From: a phage
Direction: 5' to 3' (one strand)
Length of the DNA: 64,000 nucleotides
Sequence record: PZ386967.1
Numbering within the stretch: the stretch's first letter is position 1; the number at the start of each line of letters is the position of its first letter. The notes beneath the pieces were generated by a model, which was not told where the DNA came from, ran no database searches, and was given only the letters and a program-made list of their open reading frames with translations. Shown here in pieces: positions 23,126 to 51,861 of this stretch. A program made the translations under genes and the position numbers.

Positions 23126-23307
23126 TCCAGACGTGTAACATAGGGGAGGCAACTCCCCCTATCAGGTCTTTGGAGGAGATCGCAGTCATTCAATCCTCTT
23201 TGGTGCTCTCTGGGTTGCTGACACATCCAGAACAAAGTCTCCCCCAGCTCCTCGAGTAGTTCACTTTCACTTTAAATACCTCTGCATTCATTGTGGAGGT
23301 ATTTCTT

Positions 23308-24102
23308 ATGGCCATTCTAAAACTTGGCAACCGTGGCACTGAAGTGAAGGCACTTCAGAATAGCCTCAACAAAATCGGCTTCACCCTCGTCGCTGATGGT
23401 ATCTTTGGCAAGGCAACAGAGAACGCCGTCAAGACTGTTCAGGCGGGTGCGGGGCTTGTCATTGATGGTATCGTGGGTCCAAAGACCTCCTATGCTATTC
23501 GCAACGCCGGAGACGCCCATCAGGATCATCTAACTGAGTCAGACCTGATTGATGCTGCTAACGATCTGGGTGTTGACCTCGCCTCTGTCAAGGCGGTGAA
23601 TCAGGTTGAGTCGCGCGGCACGGGCTTCACCAAGTCAGGTAAGATCAAGACATTATTTGAGCGCCACATCATGTATAAGAAGCTGATGGCGAAGTTCGGA
23701 CAGGCTCGAGCGAATGCCATGGGACATATGTACCCGACGTTGGTCAGTCCTTCCGCAGGCGGGTACACGGGAGGCGACGCGGAGTTGGATCGACTTCATG
23801 CGGCCATCAACATCGATGAGGATTGTGCGTACGAGAGCGCCTCTTACGGTCTCTTCCAGATCATGGGATTCAACTGCCAGATCTGTGGATATGCCAACGC
23901 CAAGGAGATGTTCAACGACTTCCTGACAGGAGAACGTGCTCATTTGATGGCATTCGTGAAGTTCATCAAGGCTGACGCCAAGCTCTGGCAGGCTCTGAAG
24001 GACAAGAACTGGTCTGAATTTGCACGGCGCTATAATGGTCCGGCGTATGCCAAGAACCAGTACGACAAGAAGCTCGCAGCAGCATACAAGAGTTTCAGTT
24101 AA
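23308..24102 (+). CDS. Endolysin: peptidoglycan-binding domain plus muramidase-like domain
   Basis: N-terminal PG_binding_1-like LKLGNRGTEVKALQNSL..GIFGKATENAV; C-terminal NWSEFARRYNGPAYAKNQYDKKL typical of phage muramidase (DUF3380-type) endolysins. Confidence 0.75.
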   Translation: MAILKLGNRGTEVKALQNSLNKIGFTLVADGIFGKATENAVKTVQAGAGLVIDGIVGPKTSYAIRNAGDAHQDHLTESDLIDAANDLGVDLASVKAVNQVESRGTGFTKSGKIKTLFERHIMYKKLMAKFGQARANAMGHMYPTLVSPSAGGYTGGDAELDRLHAAINIDEDCAYESASYGLFQIMGFNCQICGYANAKEMFNDFLTGERAHLMAFVKFIKADAKLWQALKDKNWSEFARRYNGPAYAKNQYDKKLAAAYKSFS

Positions 24103-36383: not shown

Positions 36384-36481
36384 TTCAATGTAAGATCGGG
36401 GTATAATTACCCCGCTTTGTAGCAAACTGAAATACATGTAACAGAATAGCCCTGAGGGGCGGAAACAGAGGAAATTAAGAA

Positions 36482-50213: not shown

Positions 50214-50555
50214 ATGACTACACTCGTAGAAACATTATTCCCAGGCTGCGTGCTTGGGCGCGGTGGATCCGAAGCCAACGGGCTACCGATTGACGTCGAA
50301 CCTCAGAACTGTGTTATTGTTGACAAGTTTCACGACAACCACTATGCCCTGAACAATCGTCGTGACCACTATCTTGTTTCCGTAGGAGATTCTTTGGTCA
50401 GTCTGCGCATCTGCAAGGCTATGCCAGGATCCGGCTATGGAGCATTCGCCTATATTCACAGCGTGTCAAATGACAAGCTGGGTAAAGAAGCCCTGGTTGA
50501 AAAATTCAAGAGTTGGAAGGATTCTTTCACCTCAATTGAACCCCCGAAGAAATAA
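50214..50555 (+). CDS. Hypothetical protein
   Basis: 113 aa ORF. Confidence 0.45.
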   Translation: MTTLVETLFPGCVLGRGGSEANGLPIDVEPQNCVIVDKFHDNHYALNNRRDHYLVSVGDSLVSLRICKAMPGSGYGAFAYIHSVSNDKLGKEALVEKFKSWKDSFTSIEPPKK

Positions 50556-50572
50556 CTGAGGACTACACACTG

Positions 50573-51181
50573 ATGTCACTGAAAAACTTACTGAAACGCA
50601 TCTTCACCACTGTTGAAGCTAACGTCACCGCAGGTCTGGATAAACTGACCGACACCGAAAAGCGCCTGAACCTGGCTGCTCGCAAGCTGTCTGACGAAAT
50701 CCGTCGCCTGGAGGAAGCCCGTGTCACCAACGTCCGCAACGGCGTCAAGCTGAAGAAGACCGCAGAACAGAACCTAAGTGAAGCCGCCAAGCGCGAAGAA
50801 GTTCTGAAGGACGCCATCGCTCGTGGTGTCACACCAACCCGCGCCGACGCCCTGATTATTCTGCATCGCCGCCGTATCGGTGAAGCCCTGTTGGCTCAGG
50901 TGAAGGACATCGAAGCAAGCAGCGACAAACTGAACGGTGCGATCATCCAGCTGGGTGACAAACTGGACGAAGTCAAGTCCAATCTCGAGCTGGTTCGTGT
51001 TCAGAAAGAGACGAACGACCTGGGTCTGGTGCTCCCTGAAGATATCGATTATGCCGCTGGTATGACCACCATCGATATCGATGCCATCCTGCGCGAAACC
51101 GAAATCGCTGATTCGAGCTACTCCGCCAACAGCCCGTCGTCTATCGAAGCCGACAACTACCTCGCCAGCCTGAGCAAATAA
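50573..51181 (+). CDS. PspA/IM30 (phage shock protein A)-like coiled-coil protein
   Basis: N-terminus LKRIFTTVEANVTAGLDKLTDTEK parallels PspA [24 protein letters not shown]; all-helical coiled-coil composition. Confidence 0.5.
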   Translation: MSLKNLLKRIFTTVEANVTAGLDKLTDTEKRLNLAARKLSDEIRRLEEARVTNVRNGVKLKKTAEQNLSEAAKREEVLKDAIARGVTPTRADALIILHRRRIGEALLAQVKDIEASSDKLNGAIIQLGDKLDEVKSNLELVRVQKETNDLGLVLPEDIDYAAGMTTIDIDAILRETEIADSSYSANSPSSIEADNYLASLSK

Positions 51182-51195
51182 CATCAGAGGGGCTT

Positions 51196-51756
51196 ATGCC
51201 CCTCTATCACTTCGGGGATCTTATGAACATTATTGATTCTTTCAACATACTCACTGGTGCTACTGCTTTCGTTCTTTTGTGTATTGGCAGTGCCTGGCTG
51301 AGAGGTCGACTGAAGAAACGGGAAGTCTTGAAGCGAGACCGTATTGACATCCACAAAATAATGCTGGATAGAACTTGCAAACATGGCCCCAGCGGTGACT
51401 TCCGTTTGTATTATTTGTCGGATGAAGTCACCCCTTCGGAATTCTTCAATTATGCGATGGCTGGGTTGCGATGGCCGGAGATAAACGGCGTTGTTCAGAA
51501 AACTGATTACGTGTACGTGAATATGGCTTCCCTGAACAAGCACGGGGAACGCGACGATCTGCGGATGTGGTTCTTTGGAGGAGAGGAACAAGAAGAGTTT
51601 GTAAAAGAACTTGCTCTCTTGCTTAACACGTACGAAAAGGCTGGTTGCCCACCACTCGAGGTGGAAGAATCAGTAGAATCTATCGTGGCTCGCGCTCGTG
51701 GTGAAACCGTGGATCTACTGAACAAATACGGCTTTGTCTGGGCGGAGGGTTCATGA
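51196..51756 (+). CDS. Membrane-anchored protein (N-terminal TM), holin-like topology
   Basis: Single N-terminal hydrophobic segment then soluble domain; hairpin terminator between it and the PspA-like gene. Confidence 0.45.
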   Translation: MPLYHFGDLMNIIDSFNILTGATAFVLLCIGSAWLRGRLKKREVLKRDRIDIHKIMLDRTCKHGPSGDFRLYYLSDEVTPSEFFNYAMAGLRWPEINGVVQKTDYVYVNMASLNKHGERDDLRMWFFGGEEQEEFVKELALLLNTYEKAGCPPLEVEESVESIVARARGETVDLLNKYGFVWAEGS

Positions 51757-51811
51757 TGGATACAGAAGTCATTATCAGCCAAGCAAGATCCCACACCCGC
51801 CAATAATCTAT

Positions 51812-51844
51812 TGAAGTCCCCAGGGTTATAATAGCAGCACATAT
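51812..51844 (+). promoter_or_regulatory. Perfect 11-bp inverted repeat containing TATAAT upstream of ligase gene
   Basis: CCAGGGTTATA-atagcagcaca-TATAACCCTGG; coordinates approximate. Confidence 0.4.
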
Positions 51845-51861
51845 AACCCTGGAGACACCGC

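Follow-up and report, generated by a model that had tools for sequence, protein, structure and literature searches.

A PspA/Vipp1-like protein of the T4 e.6 family and a neighbouring membrane protein in an accessory cassette of Ackermannviridae phages

In bacteria, the ESCRT-III machinery of membrane repair is represented by proteins of the PspA/Vipp1 superfamily, and the term 'phage shock protein' itself goes back to the response of the host to phage. Known phage shock protein (PSP) systems commonly couple PspA with transmembrane (TM) proteins (PMC11237479). A phage-borne relative has also been noticed: an independent HHpred-type result for the protein family phrog_1203 disclosed a resemblance to PspA in Kuttervirus SeF3a, and the hypothesis that the protein counteracts abortive infection was published with it in 2022 (PMC9409062). 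The present analysis concerns two neighbouring genes on the + strand of a 64,000-nucleotide stretch of phage DNA (sequence record PZ386967.1; hereafter the window), namely gene A (50573 to 51181), a member of the same phrog_1203 and a homologue of gene e.6 of phage T4, and gene B (51223 to 51756), which codes for a small membrane protein. The two genes form one accessory cassette of phages of the family Ackermannviridae, and we propose, tentatively, that A serves membrane maintenance with B as its lineage-specific membrane partner.

The core finding, the likeness to PspA, is already known as an in-silico annotation. The study of SeF3a treated the gene as special to that phage and derived from bacteria, and it leaves T4 e.6, the membrane partner and the structure of the cassette unmentioned (PMC9409062). 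Within the searchable literature we did not find the e.6-family identity of phrog_1203, its breadth across T4-like and Vi01-like phages, or a cassette with a membrane protein predicted to face the cytoplasm. This breadth argues against a recent capture from a host. The loci compared with the window are those of the phages Ag3 (L001), Vi01 (L002), phiAS4 (L003), T4 (L004), A221 (L005), May (L006), IME250 (L007), phiMAM1 (L008), Ea2809 (L009), RB43 (L010), CC2 (L011), Se_AO1 (L012) and SeF3a (L013), and also L015 and L016.

Gene A, PspA/Vipp1 and the T4 e.6 family

Gene A codes for 202 aa and is preceded by a ribosome-binding site, read from the sequence as GAGGA (50558 to 50562), 10 nt upstream of its ATG. 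A sequence-only reading of the window had recognised the N-terminal pattern of PspA in the product, and profile searches bear this out. The Pfam model PF04012 (PspA_IM30) matches with 43.1 bits (cut-off 33.9; E = 4.9e-11), residues 5-147 of the protein aligning with positions 1-144 of the 220 in the profile. A single-sequence search of the PDB returned only noise (PspA at E = 8), and profiles were needed. With a profile of 24 close relatives the best PDB matches are Nostoc Vipp1/PspA chains (E = 0.005, residues 3-142). A profile of 40 sequences, T4 e.6 included, bears on the comparison with PspA, Vipp1 and ESCRT-III that the sequence-only reading had called for: all of the top nine matches are Vipp1/PspA, E. 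coli PspA among them, with E values between 8.6e-6 and 5.9e-4, followed by an unrelated match at 0.008; the alignment covers residues 1-147. At the tip of the helical hairpin, the phage signature ...ARG..P.R..AL..L.RRR is aligned with ...LQKGDENLARQALERKK of Vipp1.

The structural model agrees with the profiles. AlphaFold2 gave a mean predicted local distance difference test (pLDDT) score of 77.7, in which helices 28-83 and 90-149 form a long helical hairpin at pLDDT 86-97, and when the model was compared with the PDB by Foldseek the nine best matches were all Vipp1 (probability 1.00, TM-score 0.5-0.59, identity about 20%). The protein is thus predicted to consist of a basic amphipathic N-terminal helix (about residues 2-23), the helical hairpin (28-83/90-149) and a family-specific C-terminal region (150-202). 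The first 22 residues, which align with helix 0 of Vipp1, bear a net charge of +1 to +5 in 40/40 family members, and their mean hydrophobic moment in the 40 relatives is 0.53, compared with 0.37 in shuffled controls. The C-terminal residues are among the better-conserved stretches of the e.6 family, with motifs of their own (LG[IL], ED[IV], [IV]D[IV]D and Y[LI]xSL).

These comparisons place gene A within the PspA/Vipp1 superfamily, as a distant member specific to phages. By the same evidence it is not a PspA orthologue, because the NCBIfam equivalog model for PspA (TIGR02977) scores 13.2 bits against a cut-off of 243 and the C-terminal 55 residues lack a PspA counterpart; NCBIfam gave no usable match for gene A or gene B, and Pfam detected neither PspB nor PspC among the neighbouring genes.

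The immediate family of gene A is that of T4 e.6. Against phrog_1203 gene A scores E = 1.3e-66 over residues 4-201, and T4 e.6 (NP_049742) scores E = 8.1e-88, the best among the members tested. The two proteins align end to end over 196 residues with 23% identity, and gene A is, as judged from this family membership, orthologous to T4 e.6. The copies in the Ag3 and phiAS4 records are already labelled 'e.6', and one relative has been named 'PspA/IM30 family protein' by NCBI. Members of the family were located in 228 phage records, of Ackermannviridae and of T4-like Straboviridae, with hosts of several orders (Aeromonas, Enterobacterales). A search of 1.84 billion representative sequences yielded 41 clusters at E<0.001, mostly full-length proteins of about 200 aa; the others are a few fragments of lesser length and a single 3868-aa match that is spurious. 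The e.6 family is thus small and restricted to phages. The spurious match, P0077 of the representative library, is a giant adhesin-like protein whose repeat NTxLGLTAPTDVDTAVGTLTIKV resembles LGLxLPEDIDYxAGMxxIDVD of the e.6 family; its 17 matches to family residues 145-190 were judged to be chance motif similarity amplified by repetition. For T4 e.6 itself, early RNA and a middle-phase protein are recorded (PMC9697503, supplementary files 4 and 6), and our literature search on its function found nothing beyond this expression class.

The position of the aligned region invites the question of whether gene A interferes with the Psp response of the host. In E. coli, helices 1-3 of PspA contact PspF, and it is with the region of these helices that gene A aligns. 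The phage protein might then mimic PspA and silence or hijack the host response, by binding PspF or PspBC or by co-polymerising with PspA, or it might act as an immune decoy. [quoted passage not shown] However, identity to Vipp1 chains is only about 20% by Foldseek, the PspA equivalog score is 13 bits against 243, no phage-specific conservation of the known PspF-contact residues has been shown, and the hosts of the family span several orders (Aeromonas, Enterobacterales) that differ in their Psp regulators. We regard such interference as very unlikely.

Gene B and the hairpin between the two genes

Gene B belongs to phrog_11433 ('membrane protein'; E = 2.7e-76 over residues 1-177), its match to Vi01_045c has E = 6.9e-86, and PHROGs places it in the category 'moron, auxiliary metabolic gene and host takeover'. 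The sequence-only reading had let the gene begin at ATG 51196, a start that has to be revised: position 51196 lies inside the intergenic hairpin, and the most likely start is 51223, giving 177 aa, because a conserved ribosome-binding site (GGGGA, 51214 to 51218; GGGGGA or GGAGGG before the ATG in Ag3, Vi01, May and IME250) and the N-termini of all homologues (MIILD, MVIID, MIIID) favour it. The end of the open reading frame (ORF) at 51756 stands, as does the description of the product as one N-terminal TM helix followed by a soluble domain. A single hydrophobic segment occupies approximately residues 3-26 (Kyte-Doolittle 19-residue maximum 1.88), and in the Ag3 homologue both Phobius and TMHMM annotate one TM helix. 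The helix is followed by a Lys/Arg-rich stretch, an alpha/beta domain at about residues 59-140 and a conserved C-terminal motif, ESIVARARG...KYGFVW. The AlphaFold2 model has a mean pLDDT of 67.3, and neither Pfam nor NCBIfam nor comparison with known folds gave a match.

The same reading had described the topology as that of a T-like holin, a comparison that is not supported. In three homologues, 5-8 Lys/Arg residues fall within the 15 residues after the TM helix and 0-1 before it; therefore, by the positive-inside rule, the domain of about 130 residues is predicted to be cytoplasmic with the N-terminus outside. The T4 holin T (gp t) and the antiholin RI do share with gene B one TM helix near the N-terminus and a larger soluble domain, whereas holin T has its N-terminus in the cytoplasm and its large domain in the periplasm. 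No match to holin families or folds was found, holin T included, and gene B is not holin-like. Were B nevertheless a holin or antiholin, with A sensing or buffering a fall in proton motive force and so fixing the moment of lysis, the placing of a small single-pass membrane protein beside a protein of a membrane-stress family would be in keeping with it, and the slot for a holin may be open, the Kuttervirus paper mentioning a predicted endolysin and spanin and no holin (PMC9409062). Against this, besides the predicted reversal of orientation and the lack of sequence or structure match to holin T or RI, stand the position of gene B outside any lysis-gene context (the endolysin gene is 27 kb away, and the neighbourhood is early/middle, as is T4 e.6) and its dispensability, the cassette being absent from viable relatives (A221, Se_AO1 and most Kuttervirus records). 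Lysis control in T4 is explained by t, rI and rIII, so that T4 has e.6, without a B-like gene, alongside a lysis control already accounted for. A lysis-timing function is accordingly highly improbable.

In our searches, the gene B family is confined to Ackermannviridae, and a profile search for further relatives added three sequences. Homologues about 30-35% identical directly follow gene A in Vi01 (Vi01_045c), Klebsiella phage May, Serratia phage IME250 and a metagenomic lineage in which gene A is 42% identical. The order A-B is found in Agtrevirus, Kuttervirus, Taipeivirus and this metagenomic lineage. The annotation of these genes is uneven: the IME250 RefSeq entry (NC_042047) leaves the homologue at L007 3146-3679 unannotated, the annotated start of the SeF3a_126 membrane protein (L013 2351-3073) overlaps the PspA-like gene by 113 nt, and the record of phiEa2809 (KP037007, L009 3131-4936) shows 1.8 kb without an annotated gene after the e.6-like gene. 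A 171-aa TM protein that follows gene A in Erwinia phage Ea2809 was rejected as a relative by sequence, since its match to the B profile fell to E = 0.29 once it was removed from that profile; its membership is positional only.

Around the family lies a fringe of related proteins. TM-less proteins after the PspA-like gene, namely gp159 and gp160 of phiMAM1 (L008 3179-4122) and those at L015 4247-4666 and L009 3687-4433, carry weak versions of the G[LF]x[WYF]P and IVxRAR motifs of gene B and match its profile at E of about 1e-4 to 2e-5. Their sequences suggest a paralogous domain family that is diversifying, some members having a membrane anchor and others none. The interval from the PspA-like gene to the ligase gene holds variable small membrane proteins that also share with gene B a C-terminal [IVLM][IV]xxA[RKQ]xR motif, which in the window is ESIVARARG (51676-51702) and elsewhere takes forms such as QIVDKARKR, SIIKQARSR and RIVARARYE. 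Such proteins are found in Ag3 (L001 5671-5874, 6035-6187), Vi01 (L002 5230-5397), May (L006 3699-3881), IME250 (L007 3664-3834) and Ea2809 (L009 4476-4688) and at L015 4247-5293 and L016 5236-6234. The strict form [IVLM][IV]xxAR within the last 35 residues occurs in only 2 of 576 ORFs of the window, and the shared motif may be a common docking peptide.

Genes A and B are separated by a hairpin (51186 to 51205, + strand), which the sequence-only reading had also reported. Its 8-bp G+C-rich stem pairs 51186-51193 with 51198-51205 around the loop TTAT (AGAGGGGC-TTAT-GCCCCTCT) and begins 5 nt past the stop codon of gene A. In 13/13 lineages, T4 included, a G+C-rich hairpin lies within a few bases 3' of the stop of the e.6-like gene, with stem sequences that differ. 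With 18 similar hairpins in 64 kb such structures are common in this genome, and it is therefore the position that is conserved rather than the element. A U-tract follows the hairpin in RB43, phiAS4, CC2, IME250, phiMAM1, Ea2809, L015 and L016, and is lacking in the window, Ag3, Vi01, May and T4 (there in the e.6/e.5 gap), so that a canonical + strand terminator was rejected for the phage of the window. Simple terminator and promoter scans gave results at chance level, and Rfam returned no family match in the region including the hairpin.

The hairpin likely acts as a stabiliser of the transcript 3' end or as a partial terminator, uncoupling the expression levels of A and B. Codon usage differs between the two genes: E. 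coli-preferred codons make up a larger fraction of gene A (0.68) than of any other of the 81 non-overlapping window ORFs of at least 90 aa, gp32 and UvsX reaching 0.60, and gene B ranks 52 of 81 with 0.49-0.51, depending on the start chosen. The codon bias of gene A suggests very high expression. The G+C content at third codon positions (GC3) is likewise raised in gene A, to 0.66.

Distribution and setting of the cassette

The window derives from a Vi01-type myovirus of the Ackermannviridae, subfamily Aglimvirinae, with ZQ1 and Ag3 as closest relatives, and not from a Kuttervirus; over a 2-kb region the identity is 96.7% with Escherichia phage vB_EcoM-ZQ1 (Aglimvirinae) and about 94% with Shigella phage Ag3. 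Searches with tblastn located gene B in 86 phage records and gene A, with an identity of at least 60%, likewise in 86, with identical counts by host genus (Salmonella 43, Klebsiella 30, Escherichia 6, Shigella 5, Enterobacter 2), and in each of the 19 records that both outputs list the two genes are adjacent. About 228 Ackermannviridae records contain the neighbouring gene phrog_5022, which places the cassette in roughly 40% of them. In phage A221 the flanks are about 97% identical and exactly the stretch from 50573 to about 51767 is absent, both junctions being aligned; this stretch (50573 to 51767, + strand) delimits the cassette. Relative to Vi01, genes A and B and also a small TM gene are missing from Kuttervirus Se_AO1, where the breakpoints differ from those of A221. 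Gene B was never seen without gene A, while T4-like phages carry A without B, a dependence that runs one way only. Genes A and B are thus one accessory cassette of Ackermannviridae phages, set within a run of replication genes.

The distribution differs strongly between hosts, with the cassette in 30/31 Klebsiella-phage records and in 43/159 Salmonella-phage records. Such host-dependent patchiness is typical of counter-defence genes. In line with the hypothesis published for phrog_1203 of SeF3a (PMC9409062), A could neutralise abortive-infection or immune effectors that depolarise or perforate the inner membrane, a special case of membrane protection that would fit the accessory and patchy occurrence (86 of about 228 Ackermannviridae records) and also the 'moron, auxiliary metabolic gene and host takeover' category of gene B. 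On the other hand, no system is known as a target, annotations of defence or anti-defence were not seen, though the PADLOC library was not searched, and in T4-like phages e.6 is widespread and not patchy, which accords better with a general physiological role. We hold a dedicated counter-defence function to be unlikely, if worth keeping in view.

A simpler account is that A and B are functionally unrelated, A acting alone as in T4 and B being one of many fast-evolving small membrane proteins in front of the ligase gene. The T4-like A genes have unrelated, TM-less neighbours, the interval from A to the ligase gene holds a variable number of small TM proteins across Ackermannviridae, the hairpin separates A from B, and in phiMAM1 the only relative of B is a weak one and TM-less. 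This account has to contend with the fact that B sits directly downstream of A and never occurs without it, with two independent indels that remove A and B jointly, and with the retention of B in the same position in three genera or more, where its identity goes as low as about 30%. It therefore seems to us doubtful, although a serious contender.

On the + strand, the order of genes is gp41 helicase, DsbA-like regulator, phrog_2319, phrog_4789, phrog_5022, gene A, gene B, DNA ligase and gp59 helicase loader, the genes flanking the cassette being replication genes on the same strand. The upstream gene (50214-50555) is phrog_5022 and is retained in phages without the cassette. Because gene A starts only 17 nt past the stop of this gene, it is probably co-transcribed with the upstream genes.

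Further observations concern the surroundings. A stem-loop with 15-nt arms and the sequence TATAAT (51816-51856), just upstream of the DNA ligase start, is kept with and without the cassette (A221, Vi01, Se_AO1) and marks its right-border region. A separate hairpin, CGGGGTATGATTACCCCG, is repeated at 1275-1292 and 1834-1851, with a TATAAT variant at 36397-36414; these elements may be promoters or stem-loop regulatory elements. The putative endolysin gene (about 23293-24102, so annotated in ZQ1) codes for an N-terminal peptidoglycan-binding-like region and has PhoH and ribonucleotide reductase genes as neighbours, with no obvious holin or spanin gene adjoining it.

A proposed role and its known counterparts

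The sequence-only reading had suggested a module for lysis timing or membrane protection. The second of these is favoured here as a proposal, while the first gained no positive support. We propose that A is a membrane-maintenance protein with B as its lineage-specific membrane partner, and give this mechanism as a whole a probability of roughly 0.45. The product of gene A would be abundant in the cytoplasm from early to mid infection, attach to the inner membrane from the cytoplasmic side by means of its predicted N-terminal helix, which is basic and amphipathic, and polymerise through its helical hairpin. The resulting polymer could keep the membrane tight and energised, preserving the proton motive force, until programmed lysis; the stress to be countered would come from the phage itself and from any host counter-measures. 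B would serve as an anchor, recruiter or regulator of A, comparable to PspB/PspC or LiaI in role and not in sequence, and its cytoplasmic domain or C-terminal motif might contact A.

Several points weigh against this proposal. The N-terminal segment of the gene A model is unreliable, pLDDT being below 50 for residues 1-25, and all profile and PDB alignments end near residue 147, leaving the C-terminal 55 residues with no counterpart to PspA helices 4-5. Only 9/40 diverse family members match PF04012 individually at E<0.01; T4 e.6 alone has no match to this model, and the Vi01 copy, with 30.0 bits, remains under the cut-off. None of the 41 significant family matches among the 1.84 billion representatives is a bacterial PspA, so the relationship is a remote one. 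The T4-like phages have no B-like or TM neighbour of gene A, and B is therefore not needed for the core activity of A. The co-occurrence of A and B could reflect nothing more than their being neighbours in closely related genomes, as the independent losses documented number only two. Most Kuttervirus phages thrive without the cassette, and any benefit must therefore be conditional. Finally, the searchable literature yielded no experiment on any member of either family.

If borne out, a phage-encoded branch of PspA/Vipp1 would imply that large lytic phages actively look after the host membrane, both its integrity and its energisation, while they infect, and this by way of a protein conserved from T4 to Vi01-type phages and encoded by the most strongly codon-optimised gene in 64 kb. 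The main value of the finding lies in the membership of T4 e.6, which makes the idea directly testable in the best-developed phage genetic system. As the cassette is patchy in therapeutic phages of Salmonella, E. coli and Klebsiella, it could also affect their host range on strains with membrane-targeting defences. It is enticing to speculate further that large virulent phages, T4 among them, encode an ESCRT-III-like membrane polymer of their own to which Ackermannviridae add phage-made membrane adaptors, gene B and the variable small TM proteins all ending in a cytoplasmic [IVLM][IV]xxA[RKQ]xR peptide that could dock the polymer. This extended version is quite unlikely; if true, it would describe a self-contained viral system of membrane repair or remodelling, with T4 e.6 as a ready genetic model.

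Set beside the described systems, the locus resembles each in part. With Vipp1/IM30 and PspA (PDB 6zvr, 7o3w, 8qbr, 4whe, 7abk), which are its best matches by sequence profile and by structure, gene A shares an N-terminal region of 145 residues that aligns from residue 1 and in which, by prediction, a basic amphipathic N-terminal helix precedes a helix 1/helix 2-3 hairpin with a Gly-containing tip; it differs in its identity of about 20%, in its length of 202 aa against 220-270 aa, and in its origin from virulent phages without pspF, pspB or pspC. The pairing of a PspA-family gene with a small membrane protein recalls PspB/PspC with PspA in E. coli and LiaI with LiaH in B. subtilis, an analogy of role only, since gene B resembles none of PspB, PspC and LiaI in sequence or in fold, and LiaI has four TM helices (PMC11237479) where gene B is predicted to have one, with a 130-residue domain. 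T4 e.6 is of the same PHROG and size as gene A, has the same conserved C-terminal motifs and is likewise followed by a G+C-rich hairpin, but its neighbours e.5 and e.7 lack a TM helix and are unrelated to the genes flanking gene A; e.5 and e.7, and the e.6 neighbours in phiAS4, RB43 and CC2, were compared with gene B and the upstream gene and rejected as relatives. A further described counterpart is that of SeF3a (ON809763), whose GenBank entry names Gp_125 'shock protein A' and Gp_126 'membrane protein': phrog_1203 is followed by phrog_11433 in the same order, with the ligase gene next, and its A is about 82% identical to the copy in the window phage, whereas its B is only about 34% identical.

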